This document shows positions 2,578-64,000 of a stretch of 64,000 nucleotides of DNA, in pieces (positions within the stretch are counted from its first letter, which is position 1; each line of letters starts with the position of its first letter). The DNA is from Chloroflexota bacterium (lineage in GTDB: Bacteria; Chloroflexota; Anaerolineae; UBA1429). The notes beneath the pieces were generated by a model. That model saw only the letters and a list, made by a program, of their open reading frames with translations, was not told where the DNA came from and ran no database searches. The position numbers and the translations under genes are program-made. The stretch spans positions 6,400 to 70,399 of the forward strand of contig DUUT01000197.1 of NCBI GenBank assembly GCA_012841405.1, in the 5' to 3' direction.

Positions 2578-3177
2578 TCAACGGCGGTACCGTTCCTCCT
2601 GCCATGGGTCACCCCGGTCGTGATAGCCACGGGATTCCCAAAACCCGGGACGACTCTCGGCTACACAATCGATTCCCTCGATCCACTTGCAGCTCTTCCA
2701 GGCGTAGAGGCGCGGTACGACGAGCCGCACCGGTCCACCGTGCTCGGCGGTCAGGGGGCGGCCATCATGGTGCGTCGCCAGGAGCACATCCTCGGCGAGC
2801 AGATCGGTGAGGGAGAGGTTCGTGGCGAATCCGTGGGCTCCATGAATGACCACGTGGCGCGCCTCGGGAAGCACCTCTACGAGGTCCATGATGGTGCGCG
2901 TGCTGACGCCCTCCCAGAGGTTGTCCAGCCGCGACCATCCGGTAACGCAGTGGAAATCCGAGAGCACGGTGACCCGCGGCAAGGCCCAGAACTCGTCCGC
3001 CGTGATCGTGCGCTGGGTGCGCACCAAGCCGCCGAAGGTTAGCGTCCAGGTGGAAGGATCGATGCGCGGGACGCCACCGATATGGAGCACCGGCCAGTGG
3101 ATCGTCTGCCTCTGCCCCGGCGGAATGCGAACGGGCCGCAACGTGTCCGGGCTGTGAATGACTCCCTCGCCAAGCAC
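2578..3177 (-). CDS. molybdopterin-binding oxidoreductase (sulfite-oxidase fold, YedY/MsrP-like domain)
   Basis: [20 protein letters not shown] and [20 protein letters not shown] motifs. GTG 3177 follows AGGAGG. The longer track ORF to 3450 runs through a repeat element. Confidence 0.7.
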
Positions 3178-3203
3178 CGCCACCTCCTGCACACCGGGGC
3201 CTA

Positions 3204-3439
3204 GGGCGTGCCTGAAGAACGCACCTACCTGCGCAGAAACGATGTCGTCCCGAGCGTCAGCAAGAGGTCCCGACGCACGCCTACAAGGTTCCGTGCTGCT
3301 CTGCAAGCGCGCCGCGAGCTCAAGCTTGACCCCAGCCGCCTTGGCCGTGCGCCAGCGCCCGCAGTCTGTATGCGCCGCAGAGTACGCCATGAGCATGATG
3401 ACTCGGAGCGACGCTGTGGCCCTGTCGCCAAACACGACC
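3204..3439 (-). mobile_element. MITE-like repeat, long/hybrid copy
   Basis: One end is ...CAGGCACGCCC followed by TAG, and the other is GGTCGTGTTTGGCGACAGGGCCACAGC. Internal blocks are shared with the copies at 24273 and 24406. Confidence 0.5.
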
Positions 3440-3455
3440 TCGACCAACAACTCCC

Positions 3456-4219: not shown

Positions 4220-4919
4220 TCAGGGGAGCTGCACGTCGAGGACGCCCTCGCTCCAGTCGGGTGTCTCGGCGAGTAGTCGTCCATCGGGGCCAAAGAGGTA
4301 TCCGCCCCCCGGAAAGTCCTCATCGCGCGTACGGCCGGCCTGTGTCGCGATAGCTATGGGGATGCCGAGCTCGGCGGCATAGGACCCAGGGCCTTTTAGG
4401 CATTCGCCGCGCCACCAATCAAAGCCGGAGCGCCAGTTGCGCGTGGCCTGCTCGCCGTACAGCCCAGGGGCGGCCGCCACGAGGACGGCCCGAGCGCCAC
4501 GGCGGGCGTATTCGGCAAAGACCTCACGATGGCCCACGTCGGCACAGATGGCGACGCCAAAGACGAGGCCGGCGTGGGCAAAGAGCGGAAAGGCGTCTCC
4601 TGGCGTGAACCAGGCGATTTCCTCGTCCTCGATGCTCACCTTGCGGTACGCCCCGAGCAACGCTCCCCGGGCGGCGACGATCTGGGTGATGTAGGGCTTG
4701 GCGACTCCGCTGACGCCCGACTCTTCGATGAGGCCGGCCACCAGGGCCGCATCATGACCACGGGTGAGGGCGACGACAGCGGCCACCTCGGGCCCGTTGA
4801 GGGCCAGAACCGCCTCCGGGCAGTGCTGCGGCACGGTACGCGTGGCGCATGGCGGCCATGTTGTCATTGATGGCGCCCTTTTCGCAGCGCATCTGCACGA
4901 GGCTTACGGTGATGGGCAT
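4220..4919 (-). pseudogene. carbon-nitrogen hydrolase (nitrilase superfamily), frameshifted near 4830
   Basis: The N-terminal strand MPITVSLVQMRCEKG is in the frame of ORF 4752..4976. The rest (HCPE, AYRKVSI, VAICADV = Glu/Lys/Cys triad) is in the frame of ORF 4220..4867. Confidence 0.65.
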
Positions 4920-10941: not shown

Positions 10942-11055
10942 TGGCGTAGGCCCTACCTCGGGCGTACGGAGCGGGACAAAGGTGAGCCGGGGAACGCGCG
11001 CGTCGGCGAGGCGAGCGGACCCCCGGTTCTTCTTCACGGCGCGCTGTGTCCCCTA

Positions 11056-11188
11056 GGCCCTGTTTCACGAATGCACCTGACGTCGTAACGATGTCGCCCC
11101 GAGCGTAGGTGAAGGGCCTTGACGCCCATCGAACGAGTCTTCTCGCCACGCTCAGAACCACGCTGTGGCCTATTTTCCAAACGCAACC
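11056..11188 (-). mobile_element. MITE-like repeat, 133 nt, TA-flanked within CTAG
   Basis: TA at 11054-55 and 11189-90. Ends GGTTGCGTTTGGAAAATAGGCC and ...CGTGAAACAGGGCC. The terminal G completes the TAG stop of the AKR gene. Confidence 0.6.
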
Positions 11189-12036
11189 TAGCCGCGGGTA
11201 AAGAGAGGCTCGAGCCCACTGGAACGCGCGGAAACCTGTTTCTGCTCCTCGCTGGTCAGCGTACAGAAGCGATCGGCGGCATCACACATCCACCATAGCA
11301 GCTCGGCGTGACTCGGGCTGACGGCGGCGGTAACGTCGTGAGACAGCGTCCAGTTCAGTGCCATCTGCGCCTCGGCGGGATCATCGACGGGGACGTACCA
11401 GCACTTGGGCCATGGGCGCTGCTCGCCCTCGCGAAGGGGACGCTTGGCGAGCGCCTTGAGCGCCAGGATACCGACGTGCGCCCGCTTGGCGGCGGCTAGG
11501 GCGCGGGCCCCAAAGCCGCCTTGGTACCATGCCACCCAGTTGAACGGAAAGAGCATGGTGTCGAAGGGAAAGCGCGCTAGCAGGGCGGCGGCTGCGTCCT
11601 CATCATGAGCGGAAAAACCGATAAAGCAGATGAGACCCTGCTCTTGCGCCTCGACAAGGGCCTCGATAGCGCCGCCGGGTGCCAGAATCTGCTCGACCTC
11701 GCCGAGGCTGGAGACAGCGTGGATCTGATAGAGGTCGAACCTGTCCGTGCGTAGGCGTTCGAGGGAGCGCCGCAGCTCTTCGCGCGCGCCCTGAGCCGTG
11801 CGCTCGCGCGTCTTGCACGCCAGGAACACGGACCGGCGATAGGGCGCCAGGGCGGGGCCAAGGCGTTCCTCGGCGTTACCGTAGGTGGGCGCGACGTCAA
11901 AGTAGTTGATGCCACGGTCGATGGCTTGGGCCACCAGGCGCGTGGCCTCATCGGGAGTGACGTCGTTGACCACCATGCCGCCAAAGCCGACGACGGAGAG
12001 GTTGACCCCAGTTCTGCCCAGACGATGAGTATCCAT
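11188..12036 (-). CDS. aldo/keto reductase
   Basis: MDTHRLGRTGVNLSVVGFGG...INYFDVAPTYGNAEERLG. ATG 12036 preceded by GGAGG. Confidence 0.85.
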   Translation of the reverse strand: MDTHRLGRTGVNLSVVGFGGMVVNDVTPDEATRLVAQAIDRGINYFDVAPTYGNAEERLGPALAPYRRSVFLACKTRERTAQGAREELRRSLERLRTDRFDLYQIHAVSSLGEVEQILAPGGAIEALVEAQEQGLICFIGFSAHDEDAAAALLARFPFDTMLFPFNWVAWYQGGFGARALAAAKRAHVGILALKALAKRPLREGEQRPWPKCWYVPVDDPAEAQMALNWTLSHDVTAAVSPSHAELLWWMCDAADRFCTLTSEEQKQVSARSSGLEPLFTRG

Positions 12037-16318: not shown

Positions 16319-18718
16319 ATGGTGCAAGAGAGACAGGCGCGTGGGCGCGGCGTCGGGCTGGTGCTTGTAGGCATGGTGCTGGTTGCTGCCCTCGGGGGAA
16401 GCTGGCTGGCCAAGAGGGGAGACGCTGAGGGGCAGACGCTCGGCCTCCCACCGGGAACGCGCGTCGGCTACCACCATGCGACGGGGCTGGTGCGGTTTCT
16501 CGGCGCGGCGGCGGGCGAGGCGTTGGCCGAGTATCCGAGTCTGTCATCGGCCGAAGGCCCCGAAGGGATCGCGGAAGCCTTTCTGAGCGTGTACGGCGGC
16601 CTCTTTGGCGTGGCGGACACGCAGCGGGACCTTGCCATTCAGTCCACAACCACGGCTCCGTCGGGGCGGACCGCGGTGCGCTACCAGCAGCACTACGACG
16701 GCGTGCCCATCGTGGCCGGCGAGTTGCTCGTGCAGGTTGATGCGTCGCAGCGAGTGTTGGCGGCCACCGGGGAGACCGCCAGAGACCTCACCCTCGATGT
16801 GACGCCGCGGCTGGCGTCCGACGAGGCGTGTCGGCGCGCGCTGGAGGATGTGGCACAGGAACGAGGCGCCGATCCCCAGGCGTTGACGTGCTCCGAGCCC
16901 GAGCTCTGGATCTATGATCCGGCGTTGCTCGATGCGCCGGGGCCGCGCCGCGCGCGCCTGGTGTGGCGTATGGAGATCCGCCACGCGGACGACCTGTCGG
17001 TGCGCGAGCTGGCACTCGTCGATGCCCACATGGGCGTGATGGCCCTGCGCTTTAGCATGGTCGATGAGGCCAAGCTGCGGAGGGTCCATGACAACGCGAA
17101 TGACGCCTCTCGCGGACTTCCGGGAACCCTGGTGCGCATCGAGGGGGGGCCGCCGGTAGGCGTGACCGATGCGGATGCCGCCTACGCGTTCCTGGGGGAC
17201 ACGTACGACCTGTACCATCGCCTGCACGGCCGCGATAGTTGGGATGGGGCGGGGGCGCCGATAGTGGTGACGACGCGATATTGCCCTCCCGGACAGGAGT
17301 GCCCCTACAGGAACGCGTTCTGGAACGGCACCCAGCTCGTGTTCGGCGAGGGGTATGCACGCGCTGACGATGTCGTGGCGCACGAGTACACCCATGCGGT
17401 GACCGAGCACACCTCACGCCTCTTCTACTACATGCAATCTGGAGCGATCAACGAAGCGTTCTCGGACATTTGGGGCGAATTCGTGGACCTCAGCAACGAC
17501 GGCGATGCGGGCAACGACGCCGAGCGATGGCTGGTCGGTGAGGATCTCACCAACGGCCCTGCCCGCAGCCTGAGTGACCCGCCGTCTTTCGCGTACCTGT
17601 TTCCCGATACGGGGCTCCAGCCGTATCCCGACCACATGGAGCACCCGGGCTACTACTGTGGTCATCTGGATAACGGCGGCGTACACCTGAACAGCGGGAT
17701 TGCGGCCAAGGTGGCCTATCTGCTGACAGATGGTGGCTCCTTCGGCGGGTATGACATCGGGCCGTTGGGCCTGGCCAAGACGGCAGCAGTGTTCTATGAG
17801 GTGCAGACCCAGTTGCTCACCTCCGGGGCGGGCTACGCCGATCTCCACGATGCGCTCATCCAGGCGGCCTACAACCTCGTCGTCGATGGCGTGTTGACGC
17901 CACCTGACGTGACGCACGTCGAGCGGGCGGTGGCGGCCGTGGGGATGGATCGACACCCCCCGGCGTGTGCCGTCGCTGTGGCGCCTCTGTGCACGGAGGG
18001 CTCTCCCCAGGACGTCTTTTATGATGACCTGGAGCGTCCCGAGGACGGCATCTGGACGGCGGTTACGCTCGAAGGGGTGTACAACAGCTTTTACTACCCC
18101 CAGAACCCGAACGACTTGGGCTTGGACGCCACGTATGCGCGCAGCGGAGTCACCAACATCTGGGGCTATGACCAGGAATATATCGGTGACTATGCCATGG
18201 TCATGATGCGCGACGTGGTGCTCCCTGCTGGGGCGTACCTGCGGTTCGAGCATGCGTTCGCTTTTGAAGAGGCGCCCAAGTGGGGGCAAGGGTTCGGCGC
18301 CGATGGAGGCGTCGTCGAGTACAGTATCGACGGGGGCGCCACCTGGCAGGATGCCGGCCCGTTGTTCACGCACAATGGCTATACGGGCCGATTGGTCGAA
18401 GGGTGGGGGAACCCCTTGGTCGGCAGGGAGGCCTTTGTCTCCGCAAGCAGGGGGTATATCACGAGTCGCCTGGACCTCCGCTCGCTGGCCGGTGAGCGGT
18501 TTCGCGTGCGCTTTCGCATTGGCACCGATGATGGCGGCAACGACTATGGGTGGTTCATCGATAACATTCACATCTACCACTGCCTTGACGCGCCGGGAGC
18601 GGCGACAGGCACGCCCACGTTGGTGGAGCCTACGCGCGCAACGCCCACGCGGGCAACGCCCACGGGTGTGCCGCATCCGTGGTGGTTCCCTGTGGCCATC
18701 AAGGAGTATGCGCGCTGA
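16319..18718 (+). CDS. secreted M4 (thermolysin-like) metallopeptidase with propeptide and C-terminal domain
   Basis: VVAHEYTHAV (HEXXH) and GAINEAFSDIWGE motifs. N-terminal signal/TM segment. Confidence 0.9.
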   Translation: MVQERQARGRGVGLVLVGMVLVAALGGSWLAKRGDAEGQTLGLPPGTRVGYHHATGLVRFLGAAAGEALAEYPSLSSAEGPEGIAEAFLSVYGGLFGVADTQRDLAIQSTTTAPSGRTAVRYQQHYDGVPIVAGELLVQVDASQRVLAATGETARDLTLDVTPRLASDEACRRALEDVAQERGADPQALTCSEPELWIYDPALLDAPGPRRARLVWRMEIRHADDLSVRELALVDAHMGVMALRFSMVDEAKLRRVHDNANDASRGLPGTLVRIEGGPPVGVTDADAAYAFLGDTYDLYHRLHGRDSWDGAGAPIVVTTRYCPPGQECPYRNAFWNGTQLVFGEGYARADDVVAHEYTHAVTEHTSRLFYYMQSGAINEAFSDIWGEFVDLSNDGDAGNDAERWLVGEDLTNGPARSLSDPPSFAYLFPDTGLQPYPDHMEHPGYYCGHLDNGGVHLNSGIAAKVAYLLTDGGSFGGYDIGPLGLAKTAAVFYEVQTQLLTSGAGYADLHDALIQAAYNLVVDGVLTPPDVTHVERAVAAVGMDRHPPACAVAVAPLCTEGSPQDVFYDDLERPEDGIWTAVTLEGVYNSFYYPQNPNDLGLDATYARSGVTNIWGYDQEYIGDYAMVMMRDVVLPAGAYLRFEHAFAFEEAPKWGQGFGADGGVVEYSIDGGATWQDAGPLFTHNGYTGRLVEGWGNPLVGREAFVSASRGYITSRLDLRSLAGERFRVRFRIGTDDGGNDYGWFIDNIHIYHCLDAPGAATGTPTLVEPTRATPTRATPTGVPHPWWFPVAIKEYAR

Positions 18719-23595: not shown

Positions 23596-24273
23596 ATGCT
23601 GTACTTGGTGGCGACACCGATCGGCAACCTGGGAGACATCAGCCTGCGGGCGCTAGAGACGCTGCGCACGGTGGATCTGGTGGCCAGCGAGGACACGCGC
23701 AAGACCGGGCGCCTCCTGAAGCACTATGACATCCACAAGCCCCAGGTGGCCTTTCACGAGTACAACGAGGCGGAGGCGACGCCGCGTATCGTCGAGGTAC
23801 TCAAGGATGGAGCGTCGGTGGCGCTGGTGGCCAACGCGGGGACGCCGGGGATCTCGGATCCGGGATACTCTTTGGTGCGCGCGGCGGTGGAGCACGACCT
23901 GCCCGTAACGATGATCCCCGGGCCCACGGCGCTAGTGATGGCGGTGGTGCTGTCGGGGCTCCCCGCTCACAGCTTTGTCTTTCGGGGGTTTACGCCGCGG
24001 CGGTCGGCAGCGCGCCAACGGTTCTATGCCGCCGATGCCGAGATCCCCTACACGCTCATCTATTACGAGAGCCCCTATCGGCTGCTCGCCTCGCTCGAGG
24101 ATGCTCTGGCGGTGTTTGGCAACCGTCGGGCGGCGCTGGCGAATGACCTCACCAAGATGTACGAGGCGGTGGAACGTGGCACGCTCACCGAACTCATCGA
24201 GCGGCTGCGGGGCACGCCCATTCGCGGGGAGTATGTGCTGGTGGTCGCCGGGGCGGAGGCGGCGCAGGGCTAG
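23596..24273 (+). CDS. rsmI: 16S rRNA (cytidine1402-2'-O)-methyltransferase
   Basis: [35 protein letters not shown]. Confidence 0.9.
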
Positions 24274-24403
24274 GGCGTGTGTGAAAAAGGGCCACAGCTC
24301 CGATCTGTGCGTGGCGAGAAACCTTGTCGATGGGCGTCAAGGCACCTCGTTTACGCTCGGGACGACATCGTTTCGACGTCGGGTGCATTCTTGAGACACG
24401 GCC
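24273..24403 (+). mobile_element. MITE-like repeat, 131 nt, TA-flanked within CTAG
   Basis: TA at 24271-72 and 24404-05. TIRs GGGCGTGTGTGAAAAAGG and (reverse complement) GGCCGTGTCTCAAGAATG. The first G completes the rsmI TAG. Confidence 0.6.
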
Positions 24404-24405
24404 TA

Positions 24406-24578
24406 GGACGTGTTCGGAAAAGAGCCACAGGATCGCTCCGCGTCATCATGATCCCGTCGTACGCCGCGGTGTGCTTGCAGCGTAGCGCGGCGTACGACGG
24501 TGTAGCGCGGGGCTGCGCGCGAGGCGGGCGCCCCGAGGCGGCGATGCCGCCCAGGGGCAGGGGTTCGTAACACCGTCC
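24406..24578 (+). mobile_element. second, tandem MITE-like repeat (about 173 nt subfamily) with internal 15-bp perfect hairpin
   Basis: Ends GGACGTGTTCGGAAAAGAGCC and ...GTTCGTAACACCGTCC. Hairpin CCGTCGTACGCCGCG (24454-68) pairs with CGCGGCGTACGACGG (24486-500). Confidence 0.5.
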
Positions 24579-24704
24579 ATGGAGCTTTCGAGGGCACGCG
24601 CAGCGTGACGGATGTGATGGTGCCACGGCTCCCTCCCCTGCGGAGCGGAAGGAGTTGCCTGAGCAAGCGGTAGCGCCACGAGCAGTGCCGTGGAGGTGGA
24701 CGGA

Positions 24705-28020: not shown

Positions 28021-28161
28021 CCCCGGCATTACCCTGATGCTGATGACACCGTTACTGGCCTTTATGCTCATCGGATGGGATCACCGCACGCTGACCTCGT
28101 ATCGGCTGCGCGGCCGAGCCGTCGACGGCCATGAGAGATAGCGGGCCCTGTCCGCGGGCTA

Positions 28162-28292
28162 GGTCGTGTAGTGAAAACGCACCCGACGTAGGACGAGGCC
28201 GCCCCGAGCGTAAGCGCGGGGCCTTGACGCCCATCGCCAAGGTTTCTCGCCACGCTCGGAACGACGCTGTAGCCCTTCTTGCACACACTACC
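28162..28292 (-). mobile_element. MITE-like repeat, 131 nt, TA-flanked within CTAG
   Basis: TA at 28160-61 and 28293-94. Collinear with the 24273 copy over its full length. The terminal G completes the TAG of the Gfo/Idh/MocA gene. Confidence 0.6.
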
Positions 28293-29527
28293 TAGCAGCC
28301 GAGGGCGCGCAGCAGCGCTGGGCTGCGCGGGAAGCGGTCATACCCCGCGGCCGATACGGGCTCCGTCGAACGGGTCCAGGGAAGGCCGAGGTCAGAGAGC
28401 ATGGCCCCGCTGGCGTACGCCTCTGCCAGAGCGCCCTCCATCTCACGGACGGCGACGATCCCGGAAGGCTCGAGGATACGCGTGCCATCTGAGGGGATGG
28501 TGTGTACACCCTGGGATGACTCGAAGGCCAGATTGATCGCCAGGACGTGCGAGCCGGCCTCGGACAGCCCGCATGTTGGGAAGGGTTCATCGCCGGCGGC
28601 GACGCGTGCCGTCTGTCGCAGGGGCAGCGTCTGCAGATCGTCGAACGCCGGATTGGCAAAGCGCTCCTCGCGCCCGTCGGCATAGCGGATCGCGGCCACA
28701 TCGCCGTCGGCGGCCCAGTCCACGGTGCCGTGTTCGCACTCGAGGTGGATGACGGGATCGTGCTGCTCGGCGACGGCGTGGCTGACAACGTGCAGCACCC
28801 GAGCTCCCCCGGCCAGGCGCACCTCGATGCAGGACGTGTCGTAGGAGGCGATATCCCGCGCGCGGTACAGCTCGGCGCGCACCGACTCGATGGGACGCGG
28901 CGTGCCCTGGCTCGCCCTCGCATAGTACAGCGCCTGCGTCACATAGTGCGCGGTGGCGTTGGTCGCGGGGCCGTCGAGGATCCAGCGATTGTTGTGGCGC
29001 AGCGCACCGGCCCACGCGTTGCGGCTGTAGTAAGCGCTGTCGCGAGGCCAGACGATCATGGTGCGCGCCTCACGTACGGCCCCCAGGCCGCCGTCCCCGA
29101 GGCGCGACGCGATCCAGCGCGTGGTAGGTGAATACAGCCACTGGTATCCGACGGCGCACCACCGCCCCGTGCGCTGCTCGACCTCGTGCAGGTGCTGCAC
29201 CTCTTGCACGGTGCCCGCCAAAGGCTTTTCGACGAGGACATCAAACCCCGCCTCCATGGCGCTGACGGCCATCGGCTCGTGATAGGCGATGCCCGTCGGG
29301 ACTCCGATCACGTCCAGTGAGCCCTGCCCATCAGCGAGCATCGCCTCGAGACTCGCGTAGATCGAACAACCCGCCGCTTGGAGCTGTGCTACCTGGGCCT
29401 GATAGCGTTCGGGGCGGCGCACCACCGCGGCGGCGAGGCGAGCGATGCCCTCGCGCTCCAGCTGGGCGAGACAGCGAACCCACGTGGCGGCGAAACCGCC
29501 GATCCCAACGATGCCATAGTCGATCAT
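28292..29527 (-). CDS. Gfo/Idh/MocA family oxidoreductase
   Basis: MIDYGIVGIGGFAATW Rossmann N-terminus and family-like body. Confidence 0.85.
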   Translation of the reverse strand: MIDYGIVGIGGFAATWVRCLAQLEREGIARLAAAVVRRPERYQAQVAQLQAAGCSIYASLEAMLADGQGSLDVIGVPTGIAYHEPMAVSAMEAGFDVLVEKPLAGTVQEVQHLHEVEQRTGRWCAVGYQWLYSPTTRWIASRLGDGGLGAVREARTMIVWPRDSAYYSRNAWAGALRHNNRWILDGPATNATAHYVTQALYYARASQGTPRPIESVRAELYRARDIASYDTSCIEVRLAGGARVLHVVSHAVAEQHDPVIHLECEHGTVDWAADGDVAAIRYADGREERFANPAFDDLQTLPLRQTARVAAGDEPFPTCGLSEAGSHVLAINLAFESSQGVHTIPSDGTRILEPSGIVAVREMEGALAEAYASGAMLSDLGLPWTRSTEPVSAAGYDRFPRSPALLRALGC

Positions 29528-43492: not shown

Positions 43493-44527
43493 ATGGCCGA
43501 CGTGAAAGAGTTGTTGCAGCGCCACACCGCGTTCTGGAACCACGAGCGCCAGGGAGAGCCGCTCATGCGCCTGCGACCGATGCACTACCGGCGGCCGTTC
43601 GATGATTTGGACGTGACGCCGGACATGCTGGACGTGGATGCTCTGACCCCCGAGGTGGGCCATCGCGATTGGCGCAAGCGTCTCGTGCAGGGTGATCTCT
43701 TTCACGGCGAGCATGCCTTCTCGCGCATCCCCTGGATGGAGGCATTGGTCGGCTGCGAGATCCATTCGGGTACCGACGAAGCCATGTGGCCGCGACCGGC
43801 CTTGGGCCCCGATTTCGAGGGCATGGATGCGATCGTGCCGGCTGACGACAACCCATGGCTGCAAAAGCTGCTCGCGCTGACCCAGGCGTTGGTGGACGCC
43901 AATGACGGATCGTACATGGTGACGCATACGCTCATGCGTGGCCCGAGTGACCTCCTCTCGGCGTTGCTGGGGGACGAACGCATGGGCCTCGCGTTCTTCG
44001 ATGCTCCGGACACGGTATGCGAGATCCTCACGCGGGCGCGGGAGGCGTTCATCAAGGTGGCGCGGGCGCAGTACGCCTTGATTTCCGCGTTTGAGGGTGG
44101 GTGGTCGTGCTGGGCATACGGGCTGTGGGCTCCCGGGTCGGTGATTCGTTTCCAGTCGGATTCGTCAAGCCAGCTCTCGCCGCGTATGTATCGGGAGCAT
44201 ATCTTGCCCCACGATCGCGCCATCATGCAGTCCTTTGACTATTCAATCATCGACCTGCACTCGGGTGGCACGCTGCACATCCACAAAGAGCTAATGGACA
44301 CGCCGGATCTGAACGCCATCTCGGTGACGATGGATCCGTACGCCAACGCCCCGAGAGTGGAGGACCTGTTACCGACGTTCGCCGCCATCCTCGAGGCCAA
44401 GAGTCTTTTGGTGACCGGCGAGATGACCATGGCAGAGGTTGAGCGCTTGCGCGACGCCCTGCCGACGGCGAGTCTGGCGATCAACGCCCACGTGACGGAC
44501 AAGCTGCTGTATGAGCGGCCGATCTAG
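43493..44527 (+). CDS. hypothetical protein, possibly URO-D-like (uroporphyrinogen decarboxylase fold)
   Basis: ATG 43493 preceded by GAGGAGGG. RGPSDLLSALLGDERMGLAFF and the C-terminal half resemble URO-D-family proteins. Weak call. Confidence 0.5.
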   Translation: MADVKELLQRHTAFWNHERQGEPLMRLRPMHYRRPFDDLDVTPDMLDVDALTPEVGHRDWRKRLVQGDLFHGEHAFSRIPWMEALVGCEIHSGTDEAMWPRPALGPDFEGMDAIVPADDNPWLQKLLALTQALVDANDGSYMVTHTLMRGPSDLLSALLGDERMGLAFFDAPDTVCEILTRAREAFIKVARAQYALISAFEGGWSCWAYGLWAPGSVIRFQSDSSSQLSPRMYREHILPHDRAIMQSFDYSIIDLHSGGTLHIHKELMDTPDLNAISVTMDPYANAPRVEDLLPTFAAILEAKSLLVTGEMTMAEVERLRDALPTASLAINAHVTDKLLYERPI

Positions 44528-44666
44528 GTAGCGTTTGGAGCAAGGGGGCACAGCGGCGTACTAGGTGACGCACTAGACGACGAGCGCTGCAGACCCAAGC
44601 CTGGCGCTGGCACGGGATCACGTCGGCCGCGGCCGGCGCCTCCCAGTCGACGGAGGTGGGTTGCCA

Positions 44667-44691
44667 GGCTCAGGCGTCGTCCGCCTGAGCC
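44667..44691 (+). other. 10-bp perfect stem-loop
   Basis: GGCTCAGGCG, TCGTC loop, CGCCTGAGCC. Confidence 0.4.
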
Positions 44692-44728
44692 GGTAGTGTC
44701 AGGCTGTCGATGTGCGCCAAGGCCCACC

Positions 44729-44785
44729 GCGTACGCTCGGGGCCACACCGTTTCTGCGCGTGCCTTTGACGCCCGAGTCTGTAGC
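44729..44785. repeat. degenerate fragment of the MITE-like family
   Basis: Contains the GTACGCTCGGGG and CCTTTGACGCCC blocks shared with the full copies. Confidence 0.3.
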
Positions 44786-57144: not shown

Positions 57145-57219
57145 GGATGCCGTCGCCGCCCCGAGCGTACACGACGGGGGGCATCGTTTGTACGGCGGGT
57201 GTGTCCTCGAATCACGGCC
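57145..57219. repeat. partial/palindromic copy of the MITE-like family abutting nadE
   Basis: CGCCCCGAGCGTA and ...CATCGTTTGTACGGCGGGTGTGTCCTCGAATCACGGCC followed by TA. The terminal base supplies the G of the nadE TAG. Confidence 0.45.
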
Positions 57220-58874
57220 TAGCCGTGATGGAATCGCGCTGCGATGGGCATACGACGCCCGACGCCGAATGCTTTCGACGTGACGCGCAGACCGGGGGCG
57301 GCCTGTTTGCGTTTGTACTCGTTATGATCGACGGCGCGCGCCACCCAGCGCACCGTCTCGGGGGCAAACCCCTCGGCGATGATCTCGTCGACAGAGCGCA
57401 GCTCTTCGATGTACTGATGCAAGATGGCGTCGAGGATCGGATAGGGCGGCAGGGTATCCTGGTCCGTCTGGTTGGGGCGCAGCTCGGCGGATGGTGGTTT
57501 GGTGATGCTCGCGAGCGGGATGATCTCTCGCTCGCGGTTTATATAGTGCGCCAGCTCGTAGACCATGGTCTTGGGCACATCCGAGAGAACCGCCAGGCCG
57601 CCACTCATATCACCGTAGAGGGTGCAGTAGCCGACGGCCAGCTCGCTCTTGTTGCCGGTGGACAGCACCATGTGGCCGAGCTTGTTCGATAGGGCCATGA
57701 GATAGTTGCCGCGGATGCGCGCCTGGATGTTCTCCTCGGTGGCGTCTGGGGCGCGCCCCTCAAAGTGCGGTCCGAGGGCGCGCACGTAAGCTTCGTAGGG
57801 TGCGTCGATAGCGATGACCTTGTAGTCGATGCCCAGGTTGTGCGCCAGGTCCTCGGCGTCCGAAAGGCTGCCCGGGGAGGAGTACTGGGATGGCATGCCG
57901 ACGCCGAGAACGTTCTCAGGCCCCAGGGCGGCCACGGCCAGGGCGCAGGTCACCGCCGAATCGATACCGCCCGAGAGACCGATGACGGCACGATCAAAGC
58001 CGACCTTGCGCATATAGTCCTTGAGACCCAGCACCAGGGCATCGTGTACGGAGGCGATCTCGTCCTGGGGGACGTAAGGTCCGACCGGCGATGAGGTGGC
58101 CGTATCGATGGTGACGATCTGCTCCACGAAGGGGTCGAGGAGGGCGATGGGCTCACCGTCGCCGTTCACGGCGACGCTGCGACCGTCGAACACGAGGTCG
58201 TCGTTGCCGCCGACCTGGTTGACGTAAAGGAAAGGAACGCCGTGGCGCCGGGCGTGGCCGCTGATCAGGTCAAAGCGCGTCCGCTCTTTGCCCACGCTGA
58301 ACGGAGAGGCCGAGAGGTTGATCAGCAGTGTCGCCCCCTGGCGTGCCAGCTCGGTCACCGGATCGGTGTCATACGGAGGGCGCTTGGGCCACATCTCGGC
58401 GTCCATCCAGGCATCCTCGCAGATATGGATACCGAGGGACTCGCCCCGAAAACGAACGGGCTCGACGCGCGTGGTGGCGTCAAAGTAGCGCCCCTCGTCA
58501 AAGACGTCGTAGGTGGGGAGGAGGGCCTTGTAGCGCTGGGCCACGATCTCGCCGTTAGTGACCAGGATGGCTGCGTTGTAGAGCCCCTTACCGTTGGGGC
58601 GGCCGGTGGGCACGGGCGCCCCAAAGAGGATGCCGGTCTGGCCATACTCCCGCGAGACAGCGCGGATGCGCTCGATACCGTCGAGCACGTCATGGATGAA
58701 CCAGTCGCGCTCGACAAGGTCCTTCGGCGGGTAGCCGGAGACAAACATCTCGGAAAAGACCACGAGATCAGCGCCGCCCCGCTCGCGACACGCCGCGAGC
58801 GTACGGATAAGGCGATCAAGGTTCCCGTCAACGTCGCCGACGGTCGGGTTGAGCTGGGCGATGGTGATGCGCAT
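57219..58874 (-). CDS. nadE: glutamine-dependent NAD+ synthetase
   Basis: N-terminal CN-hydrolase domain ([14 protein letters not shown]) plus a C-terminal NAD synthetase domain (GLSGGIDS). Confidence 0.95.
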
Positions 58875-61632: not shown

Positions 61633-62619
61633 ATGTCTGACAAAGTGCGCATCGGGATCATCGGGGCTGGCGGGATCGCCCGGGCCCACGTCAAGCGTCT
61701 CATGGATATCCCAGAGGCGGAGGTGGTGGCTTTTGCCGATCCGAGCGAGGCCGCAATCGGGCGTATGCGGACCGAGTTTCCCCACACGGCGGGGATCCCT
61801 TGCTTTGCGGACTACTGTGAGATGCTGGCGCGCGTGCCGATGGATGCCGTCCAGATCAACACCCCGCATACGCAGCACTTTGAGCAGGGGATGGCGGCGC
61901 TGGCAGCGAACAAGCACGTGCTGATGGAAAAACCGATGGTGTGCAGCGTGCCGCACGCCCACGCGCTGATCGAGGCGGGCAGAGGCAAGGTGCTCATGAT
62001 CGCGTATCAACGGCGCTTTCAGGGGACCTATGCCTGTGTGCGCGATCTAATCCAAAGCGGCGCCGTGGGTCAGGTGCAGTATGTGGCCGCGCTGCAGTCC
62101 CAGGGTTGGTTGCGCGGAACGCGGGGCACGTGGCGACAGTGCAAGGCGCTGAGCGGTGGTGGGCAACTCAACGATTCGGGCAGTCACCTGATCGACGTCC
62201 TCCTCTGGGCGACGGGCCTGGTGGCCGACACCGTCTATGCCACGTGCTGCAACTATGATACCGAGGTGGATATTGACTCAGCTTTGGTGCTGCAGTTCAC
62301 CAACGGCGCCCAGGGGACGCTCTCGGTGATTGGCGATAGCCCCATGTGGTGGGAAGAGTTCTCGGTGTGGGGCAGTGAGGGGGCCGTCTTGTATCGTAAT
62401 GGCGCCGTGATGATGCAGCGCTTTGGCGAGAGCACCATGACAACGGTGACGGATTTGCCCGCCGATTCGACGCCAGATCGCAACTTTATCGATGCCATCC
62501 TCGGCCGTGATGCGGTGCAGGTGCCGCCCGAGTGTGGCCTGCGGGTGATCGAGCTCACCGAAGCCGCGTGGCGTTCAGCCGAGGAGGGGCGCCCGGTGCG
62601 GGTATCAGAGCTTGCGTAG
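61633..62619 (+). CDS. Gfo/Idh/MocA family oxidoreductase
   Basis: VRIGIIGAGGIARAHV...EKPM. GGGGAGGG RBS. Confidence 0.85.
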   Translation: MSDKVRIGIIGAGGIARAHVKRLMDIPEAEVVAFADPSEAAIGRMRTEFPHTAGIPCFADYCEMLARVPMDAVQINTPHTQHFEQGMAALAANKHVLMEKPMVCSVPHAHALIEAGRGKVLMIAYQRRFQGTYACVRDLIQSGAVGQVQYVAALQSQGWLRGTRGTWRQCKALSGGGQLNDSGSHLIDVLLWATGLVADTVYATCCNYDTEVDIDSALVLQFTNGAQGTLSVIGDSPMWWEEFSVWGSEGAVLYRNGAVMMQRFGESTMTTVTDLPADSTPDRNFIDAILGRDAVQVPPECGLRVIELTEAAWRSAEEGRPVRVSELA

Positions 62620-62722
62620 GGATGGCACAGGGCGAGGGGACGATGGGCCGCGATCCGGCTCGACCGCAGAAACCTCGGGACCGGAGCATCCGCAGGGAAC
62701 ACTACAGACTCAGGGGGTGGGG

Positions 62723-63787
62723 ATGAACGCGCGGGAAAGGGTGTTGAGCGCACTGGAGCGCAAAGGGTACGATCGCATCCCGGTGCACCACGAGGGGACA
62801 CCAGAAGTCAATGCCATGTTGCGCGACCACCTGGGCGTAGACGATGACCTGGCGCTTGCAGAAGCGCTGGGAGACGACTGGCGGTACGTGCAGCCCGAGT
62901 ACATCGGCCCCGCGTTGCGCACCCACGAGGACGGCAGTATCGAGGGGCTCTGGGGTGAGCGCTATGCCAACGTGCCGTACGGCGACAATATCGGCACGTA
63001 TCCGGAGGCGGTGTTTCTGCCGTTTGCCGAGATCGATGACCCGGCGCAGCTCGACGGGTACCCCTTTCCCTCGGCGGATTGGTACGACTATGCGACGATC
63101 GCCGAGCAAGCGGAGGGTTGGGCGGACTATGCGGTCTTTTTCGGCTCGGCCGGGCATCTGGACTTTATGAACGGAATCGCCCGCTGCCGCGGTGTGGAGC
63201 GCGTGCTGTTCGACGTGGGATCTGAGGATCCGGTGTTCATGCGCCTCGTGGAGGAGAGGTTTCGTTTCTTCTACGAGGTGACGGAGCGCGTGCTCCAGGC
63301 GGCGGGAGGTAGGATCGATATCGTGCACTGCGGAGAGGATCTCGGGACACAGCGCGGGCCGATCATCTCGTTGCGCTCGTTCGAGCGGCTGTTCGAGCCC
63401 TTCTATGCACAGTACTTTCAGCTGGTGCACCGCTACGGCGCTCGCGTGCTCATGCACTCGTGCGGCAGCGTGCGTCACTTTATTCCCAAGCTCATTGGCC
63501 TCGGCCTCGATATCCTCGATGTGGTACAGGTGGCAGCGGCCGGGATGGAGCTGGAGGGGCTACAGCGAGACTTTGGTGCGTACCTGAGCTTTAGCGGGAC
63601 CATGTGCGTGCAGTCAATCCTGCCGTTTGGCACGGTGGAGGACGTGGAACGCGAGGTGCGCCGACGACTCGATCTGTTTGCGGATGGCGGCTTGATCCTC
63701 GGCCCAACCCACGCCATCCAGGTGTTCACCCCGATCGACAACATCATGGCGATGTACCGGACGGCCGGGAGTCTGCGGGAGCCGTAG
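62723..63787 (+). CDS. uroporphyrinogen decarboxylase (URO-D) family protein
   Basis: MNARERVLSALERKGYDRIPV...HSCGSV...ILDVVQ...GGLILGPTHAIQ. Confidence 0.75.
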   Translation: MNARERVLSALERKGYDRIPVHHEGTPEVNAMLRDHLGVDDDLALAEALGDDWRYVQPEYIGPALRTHEDGSIEGLWGERYANVPYGDNIGTYPEAVFLPFAEIDDPAQLDGYPFPSADWYDYATIAEQAEGWADYAVFFGSAGHLDFMNGIARCRGVERVLFDVGSEDPVFMRLVEERFRFFYEVTERVLQAAGGRIDIVHCGEDLGTQRGPIISLRSFERLFEPFYAQYFQLVHRYGARVLMHSCGSVRHFIPKLIGLGLDILDVVQVAAAGMELEGLQRDFGAYLSFSGTMCVQSILPFGTVEDVEREVRRRLDLFADGGLILGPTHAIQVFTPIDNIMAMYRTAGSLREP

Positions 63788-63807: not shown

Positions 63808-63842
63808 AAAAGGGGCATCAGGCCATTGCCGGTGCCCCTTTT
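63808..63842 (+). terminator. intrinsic terminator (A-tract/U-tract flanked)
   Basis: AAAAGGGGCA, loop, TGCCCCTTTT. Confidence 0.8.
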
Positions 63843-63855
63843 GGGTGTCTGCCTC

Positions 63856-63991
63856 GGTCGTTATTGAACGCACCTGGCATCTTGTCGAGGCGGGCGCGTT
63901 CAGCGCAGCGCGGGCCGCGTCGATGGGCGTCAAGGCCCCTCGCCCACGCTCGGGGCGACATCGTTGCGGCGTAGGGTTCTCAAACGCGTCC
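63856..63991 (+). mobile_element. MITE-like repeat, 136-nt variant copy
   Basis: Ends GGTCGTTATTGAACGCACC and ...TTCTCAAACGCGTCC followed by TAG. The central blocks GTCGATGGGCGTCAAGGCCCC...ACGCTCGGGGCGACATCGTT are shared with the other copies. Confidence 0.5.
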
Positions 63992-64000
63992 TAGCTCCCC

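Follow-up and report, generated by a model that had tools for sequence, protein, structure and literature searches.

The 64,000-nt stretch of the Chloroflexota contig DUUT01000197.1 analysed here (the window; about 65% G+C) carries, at and between the ends of its genes, a family of short repeats with inverted-repeat ends and CTAG flanks. These repeats are very likely copies of a miniature inverted-repeat transposable element (MITE), non-autonomous and mobilized in trans by a DDE transposase whose gene would lie at another place in the genome. MITEs are non-coding remnants of DNA transposons that retain the transposase-binding ends, and the family described here is a new one of the ordinary kind. 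Eight copies or fragments are present in the window. The addition of flanking sequence, through contigs carrying identical genes, contributed 17 kb more (81 kb in total) and three further copies, which gives 11 copies, or about one per 7.4 kb. Positions in the flanking contig are expressed as window-equivalent numbers, negative values lying to the left of position 1. The copies and the genes that they touch are the following:

24273-24403 (24270..24406 with flanks), plus strand: full 131-nt copy, CTAG on both sides, profile E 6.5e-43; its left CTAG holds the TAG stop of rsmI (23596-24273; Pfam TP_methylase) and its right CTAG is common to the next copy.
24406-24578 (24403..24581 with flanks), plus strand: 173-nt copy of a longer subfamily, in tandem behind the preceding one; family left end (about 66 nt in common with the copy at 3204), an interior of its own, and right end ACACCGTCC followed by AT, not TA.
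28159..28295 including flanks, minus strand: full 131-nt copy, CTAG on both sides, profile E 1.8e-40; its left-end CTAG holds the TAG stop (28292-28294) of a Gfo/Idh/MocA gene (28292-29527, minus).
11053..11191 including flanks, minus strand: full 133-nt copy between convergent genes, CTAG on both sides, profile E 1.6e-40; its left-end CTAG holds the TAG stop (11188-11190) of an aldo/keto reductase gene (11188-12036, minus).
63856-63991 (63853..63994), plus strand: full-length copy whose left third has diverged, matched by the profile over positions 53-138 (E 1.3e-15); left flank CTCG, not CTAG; a converging M20 peptidase gene has its TAG stop in the right-end CTAG (63991-63994).
3204-3439 (3201..3442), minus strand: 236-nt hybrid, its left end as in the copy at 24406 and its right 95 nt as in the 131-nt copies; left flank CGAG, right flank CTAG.
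44524..44785, plus strand: decayed composite copy, with left end at 44524-44568 and core at 44705-44758 (E 0.009 and 5.8e-9) split by about 135 nt of unrelated sequence; the left end starts on the TAG stop of gene 43493-44527.
57145..57222, plus strand: right-end fragment of about 75 nt, E 4.1e-5; nadE (57219-58874, minus) has its TAG stop in the terminal CTAG (57219-57222).
-2460..-2325, -8618..-8485 and -10351..-10220: three full copies left of the window, within 12 kb.

The original prediction had assigned eight intervals of the window to a single repeat family. BLAST and profile searches recovered every one of them, and all eight contain family members. The interval 44729-44785, named there as a fragment, does belong to the family but is part of the decayed composite copy, whose left end (44524-44568) had been missed. 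The core pattern GGCGTCAAGGC-N8-12-ACGCTCGGG is present four times where 0.00 would be expected, and ACGCTCGGGRCGACATCGT with up to three mismatches has seven matches against 0.08 expected; six of these seven are family copies and the other (43212) is not.

The length of the copies varies from 131 to 236 nt. The full copies are non-coding, 131-135 nt long, and have the outer edges CTAGG...CCTAG. The consensus of this form is CTAGGTAGTGTGTGGAAAAAGGGCCACAGCGTCGTTCTGAGCGTGGCGAGAAACCTTGTCGATGGGCGTCAAGGCCCCTCGCTTACGCTCGGGGCGACATCGTTTCGACGTCGGGTGCATTTTCGAGACACGGCCTAG, whose left end GGTAGTGTKTGGAAAA and right end TTYTYGAGACACGGCC are imperfect terminal inverted repeats of about 16-20 nt; if the left end is compared with the reverse complement of the right one, GGCCGTGTYTCRAGAA, about 12 of 16 positions are paired. 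In the three copies of 131-133 nt the end repeats share, as judged by eye, about 12-13 matches in 16-18 positions, and the family profile also recognizes a copy given as its reverse complement (E 5e-5), in agreement with the inverted repeats that had been predicted. These three copies are also collinear, as claimed, with 77-82% pairwise identity. Every pairing among four full copies compared from this contig falls between 77 and 85%, a spread that can be read, from the sequences, as an old transposition burst followed by decay.

A long imperfect hairpin makes up the middle of the element. In a test of uneven conservation, all three thirds of the element were conserved to the same degree. The subfamilies (the longer copy 24406-24578 and the hybrid 3204-3439) have the left end in common and differ in their interiors, as is commonly the case for deletion derivatives of a single parent. 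Six-frame translations of the longer copies gave no credible match in Pfam (two weak and unrelated ones were far below threshold), and no helix-turn-helix or DDE remnant of a transposase was found in them.

CTAG is present at both ends in five of the 11 copies and at one end in the others; every intact end is CTAG, and no other tetranucleotide recurs. The original prediction had described the three copies of 131-133 nt as bracketed by TA within CTAG, and all three carry CTAG on both sides. The exceptions that it had listed are also right: AT follows 24578, TC takes the place of TA at one end of 3204-3439, and TA is missing to the left of 63856. A family copy on another metagenome contig (L026) has CTAA to its left and CTAG to its right.

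From the ends and flanks we infer the transposition chemistry as follows. The enzyme would bind the imperfect terminal repeats of about 16-20 bp, and the element would be cut out and integrated at the palindrome CTAG, with duplication of either the central TA or the whole CTAG. Since the element would start with G and end with C (if only TA is duplicated), CTAG would be rebuilt at both junctions, so that a targeted TAG stop would survive and the protein would remain unchanged. Every insertion would also leave two fresh CTAG targets, which would account for the head-to-tail pair 24273/24406.

The exact duplication and the family of the transposase admit two readings. The arrangement CTAG...CTAG can be divided as C-TA-[GG...CC]-TA-G, a TA duplication, or as CTAG-[G...C]-CTAG, a 4-bp duplication. 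Duplication of TA, duplication of CTAG and a CTAG borne by the element itself are not separable here, because the palindrome overlaps the terminal repeat. The original prediction had recognized in these flanks the pattern of IS630/Tc1-mariner elements. TA duplication within CTAG does fit them, but a 4-bp CTAG duplication, of the type made by IS5 elements, fits them equally, so that the IS630 label is plausible but unproven.

An IS630/Tc1-mariner parent, in which only the TA of CTAG is duplicated and the element proper is GG...CC, may well be the right one, although we hold this short of probable. Under this division both ends start with a matched GG. IS630 prefers the TA in CTAG (Tenzen and Ohtsubo 1991, as cited in PMC2170065), imperfect terminal repeats of 24 bp are sufficient in cis in the case of ISY100 (PMC2170065), and elements of the IS630 family are known from Chloroflexi (a Roseiflexus IS630 is mentioned in PMC5009743). 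However, the sequence does not separate the TA from the 4-bp CTAG duplication, and the outer C and G are not assignable to target or element because no copy has a target other than CTAG. Besides, the gene tables of the 81 kb contain no IS630-type transposase, and the translations of the longer copies have neither of the two transposase remnants mentioned above.

A parent from the IS5 family (IS5 or IS427 group) is a tentative alternative. In this case the whole CTAG would be duplicated, as a YTAR-type target, and the element proper would be G...C, as in MITEPsy1. This 100-nt element duplicates CTAG or YTAA and has the ends GGAAGGTCTGAAAAAGCC (PMC3189936). These resemble GGTAGTGTGTGGAAAAAGGGCC of the present family, with a G-rich start followed by TG-AAAAAG, a loose likeness that serves as a lead only. 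ISMysh01, of the IS5 group, makes direct repeats of the four bases CTAG (PMC9241763). However, with a 4-bp duplication the terminal repeat is mismatched at its second and third positions. A relaxed YTAR target also predicts CTAA or TTAG pairs, and none were seen, the L026 copy having CTAA on its left side and CTAG on its right. IS5-type transposases are likewise missing from the 81 kb gene tables.

A transposase of the single-strand (HUH) type would produce similar sites by another route. An element of the palindrome-associated IS200/IS605 type, or of the REP/RAYT type, that inserted 3' of CTAG without duplication and had CTAG at its own end would leave indistinguishable filled and empty sites, and a strong strand-specific hairpin is present. 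However, the element has terminal inverted repeats instead of distinct subterminal hairpins at each end. The 11 copies are divided into six on the plus and five on the minus strand under a GC skew that is uniformly positive across the window, without bias to one replication strand, and the gene tables of the 81 kb hold no TnpA, TnpB or RAYT gene. Mobilization of this kind is therefore extremely unlikely.

Most copies abut stop codons. When copies abutting TAG stops were tallied over the 81 kb, the CTAG of one end fell exactly on the TAG stop of a gene in eight of 11. In six cases this is the left end (rsmI, Gfo, aldo/keto reductase, aldehyde dehydrogenase, gene 43493-44527 and a HAD hydrolase gene) and in two the right end (nadE and the M20 peptidase). 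The four genes named in the original prediction, rsmI (24271-24273), Gfo/Idh/MocA, aldo/keto reductase and nadE (57219-57221), all have TAGs that overlap end CTAGs. The remaining three copies are the second of the tandem pair, one situated in a 5' leader and one that overlaps the end of a transketolase subunit gene. In the latter, the gene for the C-terminal subunit has its final four codons and its TGA stop, antisense, within the right end of the copy (contig L164, 17525-17538; window-equivalent about -8485 to -8498). This insertion may have replaced the C-terminus of the subunit.

Stop codons were counted on the deposited gene calls between -5781 and 68874 (74.7 kb, 58 genes). The commonest stop is TAG, used by 28 of the 58 genes, and the relatives described below behave likewise (17 of 37). 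CTAG itself is depleted in the same interval of window plus flanks (62 observed against 107 expected from trinucleotide counts). Fifteen stops are CTAG stops, and seven of them adjoin a copy. If the CTAGs present only as the other end of a copy are set aside, the non-coding CTAGs comprise 16 free intergenic ones, eight at free stops and seven at occupied stops. The excess of copies at stop CTAGs is marginal (p about 0.05, a binomial estimate) and is explained by the choice of target together with the loss of insertions inside genes. Copies are found mostly on stops because few CTAGs exist and genes end in TAG more often than in any other stop, so that stops make up about half of the non-coding CTAGs, and because insertions within genes are lost. 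The association with stop codons thus follows from the target and from the heavy use of TAG by the host.

A further observation concerns the ends that have lost CTAG. Their change is nearly always the same transversion in the central TA, which leaves CTCG or, on the other strand, CGAG (eight of 11 central changes). The same class of transversion represents only 13 of 38 changes at interior A:T positions (p about 0.01 against the ends), and no change is seen at ends that double as stop codons. The ends concerned are those at 63853-63856, 3439-3442 and 44770-44776, that in the -2328 region (L149, about 17325-17331), that at 17655-17660 of L164, and those on L139, L096 and L125. The 63856 copy, one of those concerned, is located between convergent genes just past a terminator-like hairpin (GGGGCA...TGCCCC then TTTT) at 63808-63843, 3' of gene 62612-63787.

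In a more elaborate view, insertion at stops would be a built-in 'safe harbour': a CTAG-specific transposase lineage would have co-evolved G...C ends that rebuild the TAG of the host, the host would use the strand-specific hairpin as a 3'-untranslated region (3'-UTR) element, and the decay from CTAG to CTCG at the non-stop end would mark immobilised copies. We consider this extension unlikely.

The insertions can be compared with the same places in related genomes. The closest relatives obtainable, with 81-86% protein identity, are contigs of ENA ERZ4756918 (L145, L153, L160 and L161) and the metagenome-assembled genome Anaerolineae bacterium AnMBR.bin251 (L151 and L004). The element is absent from all five orthologous sites in the relatives (L145, L151-153 and L160); for instance, the 11053..11191 copy is absent from the same place in L151 and L152. 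About 60 kb of the relatives' sequence contain no copy, apart from a tandem array in L004 described below.

The oxidoreductase leader is an insertion with both flanks aligned. The 236-nt copy follows, after about 15 nt, the -10 box of a promoter-like sequence, TTGTAA-17-TATACT (3484-3456, minus), and 9 nt separate the copy from the called start of the molybdopterin oxidoreductase gene that lies downstream (2578-3192, minus); L160 has TTGTAA-17-TATAAT. Between the window and L160, the promoter and the region of the ribosome-binding site and start codon align around some 240 extra bp in the window, and the rest of the leader agrees in length within 2 nt. Since the copy lies between the -10 box and the start, the oxidoreductase leader would hold the whole element.

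With respect to the proteins that end at copies, RsmI (225 aa), the aldo/keto reductase (282 aa) and the aldehyde dehydrogenase (455 aa) have the same length as their orthologues, with aligned C-termini, and the Gfo protein is two residues longer than its orthologue. The claim that insertions landed on stops without changing the proteins therefore holds for three of four proteins compared but not for Gfo. It had also been proposed that the element supplies the TAG stops. It does sit on them, but the unchanged protein lengths suggest that preservation of a pre-existing TAG describes the situation better.

The state of the empty sites is mixed. A single CTAG occupies the exact orthologous stop of rsmI (L145) and of the aldo/keto reductase (L151 and L152). 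At the orthologous stop, the aldo/keto reductase gene of L153 and the aldehyde dehydrogenase gene of L160 have CTGA, and the Gfo orthologue in L145 has a CTAG two codons upstream of the element site. However, of 21 orthologous genes compared, about half end in a different stop codon in the window and in the relatives, and at the element-free CTAG stops of the window the relatives have kept CTAG in only one of four cases. Because stop codons change so often, the search for CTAG in empty sites has little power, and its outcome carries no information and should not be counted as a negative one. The relatives are too distant for an empty-site test, and a CTAG target is supported chiefly by the copies themselves.

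Several points weigh against a CTAG-inserting MITE. The single CTAG that an empty site should carry is exact in two of five stop comparisons and not in the other three, and the oxidoreductase-leader site, where both flanks are aligned, reads CAGG in L160. The 24406 copy lacks TA on its right side. The terminal repeats, which the transposase would have to bind, are imperfect and among the more variable parts of the copies. A transposase had been reported missing from the window, and the absence of transposase domains from the deposited gene tables extends to the 81 kb, where no full-length parent element is seen either. Finally, no presence/absence polymorphism was found among strains 99-100% identical to the source, in which every contig carries the copies or ends inside one, so that recent mobility is not supported.

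Short-read assemblies of these nearly identical strains break in a copy just past a stop codon. L155-L158 and L163 end 47 nt after the stop of the aldo/keto reductase gene and L162 ends 25 nt beyond that of the aldehyde dehydrogenase gene, inside the copy. Such assembly breaks are expected of a dispersed repeat.

Two tandem repeats were observed in the relatives. In AnMBR.bin251, L004 carries at 4414-4721 (minus) 2.8 tandem units of 110 nt with homology to the element's left and central portions. These units possess a left-end-like sequence, GCGTGTCTC, and lack the right end, and to judge by their sequence the array looks like a small satellite derived from the family. In L153, a tandem repeat of about 22 nt (GATCCGATGTGTGGATCGCCC...) extends downstream of the aldo/keto reductase gene, from about 11100 to 11187, up to the contig end.

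The hairpin of the element raises the question of whether the repeat is chiefly a functional RNA, that is, a 3'-UTR or leader hairpin selected for termination, mRNA stability or protein binding, its spread being secondary. The central hairpin, of about 70 nt, has conserved G-U pairs, so that in every copy folding of the sense strand is favoured over that of the antisense strand by 6-23 kcal/mol. Eight of the 11 copies are in sense orientation relative to the gene that would read into them, and the two most truncated or diverged copies are among the three antisense ones; however, this split of eight to three is not significant. A central block of 15 nt is invariant in four full copies of the contig chosen without a search pattern, with a marginal permutation p of 0.04, and a related tandem array is present in a relative (L004).

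The comparative data speak against selection on the RNA. In an alignment of 14 copies, including three diverged L004 units, 82.1% of the cells of the hairpin are paired versus 82.6% in shuffles, with a covariation score of 0.106 versus 0.123. Substitutions merely break pairs, and the alignment fold contains one compensatory pair among 41. The fold z-scores (-0.2 to -4.2) are unremarkable, and the G-U pairs were inherited from one founder, hence they are not independent evidence. Rfam gave no match at the gathering score over the whole window and, up to E 10, nothing relevant at the locus; only sub-threshold matches to a microRNA model on a simple palindrome were obtained. The sole terminator-like site of the element is weak, has a 5-bp stem and lies on the antisense strand. 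A functional RNA is thus quite unlikely, and this reading was set aside since the central hairpin lacks covariation support; the hairpin is treated as a property of the ancestral sequence and not as a sign of function.

The palindrome in question is a perfect 15-bp inverted repeat, CCGTCGTACGCCGCG ... CGCGGCGTACGACGG, at 24454-24500, inside the longer copy, and its microRNA match is surely spurious. The terminator-like site belongs to the shared left end and occurs at 24293-24309 and 24426-24442 (minus), with the stem followed by GCCCTTTTTC (two found versus 0.5 expected). An origin from tRNA or tmRNA was also considered, and none was detected. Integron attC sites were dropped as candidates, the neighbours being housekeeping genes on both strands and RYYYAAC/GTTRRRY core sites being absent.

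Outside the 81 kb, genes identical to those of the source occur in dozens of metagenome assemblies, including a 1.04-Mb JGI contig, Ga0534105_00048 of 3300053716. A scan of other metagenome contigs with the core-motif pattern revealed at least four true extra family copies among the matches listed, most of which are due to chance. The same type of scan over a genome collection gave 18 single matches, all chance-like except that in L004. No family member was found in viral contigs, scanned twice, or among plasmids, searched by BLAST with the consensus, and a literature search on MITEs in Chloroflexi yielded no description.

Through these repeats, a high-density MITE family becomes known from an uncultured lineage of Chloroflexi (Anaerolineae-like) that is present in dozens of public metagenome assemblies. 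It illustrates how a palindromic target that contains a stop codon allows a mobile element to crowd the ends of genes at no cost to the proteins. There are also practical consequences, since the repeat breaks short-read assemblies exactly at gene ends and inflates spurious calls of intergenic open reading frames. At the oxidoreductase site, the copy lies between promoter and gene and could alter expression. What is known about transposition remains unchanged by this family.

Among known systems, a close parallel is MITEPsy1 of Pseudomonas syringae pv. phaseolicola, an IS5-derived element (PMC3189936). Both are short (100 nt there, 131 nt here), non-coding and present in several copies per genome, with terminal inverted repeats of about 18 nt that have a G-rich start and an A-run, and with CTAG at both junctions. 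However, there is no sequence homology beyond the loose likeness of the ends, and MITEPsy1 also uses YTAA while only CTAG is used here. The parent of MITEPsy1 is known (ISPsy2) and its mobility has been trapped experimentally, whereas the present family is known from its sequence alone and reaches a copy density (about one per 7 kb) far above that of MITEPsy1.

The likeness to IS630 and its non-autonomous derivatives concerns the TA target, the preference for CTAG and the sufficiency in cis of imperfect repeats of about 20-25 bp (ISY100, PMC2170065). Cut-and-paste transposition by a transposase supplied in trans, as in IS630, would explain the present family. In contrast to IS630, duplication of TA only is not demonstrable here, and the long internal hairpin is not a feature of that family. 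IS870 of Agrobacterium vitis, a member of the IS630 family studied by Fournier and colleagues in 1993, reportedly depends on insertion at a CTAG target for the stop codon of its own open reading frame to be complete. Thus, IS870 likewise ties insertion to a TAG stop by means of CTAG, but its target supplies its own stop, while the element described here rebuilds that of the host.

Correia elements of Neisseria and RUP elements of Streptococcus pneumoniae are dispersed repeats of 100-150 nt with inverted ends and TA flanks, often co-transcribed with the genes next to them and able to fold into a long hairpin. The present family shares with them the dispersal of short repeats, the inverted ends, the TA flanks and the hairpin, and differs in its sequence, in the phylum of its host and in its strict CTAG context.

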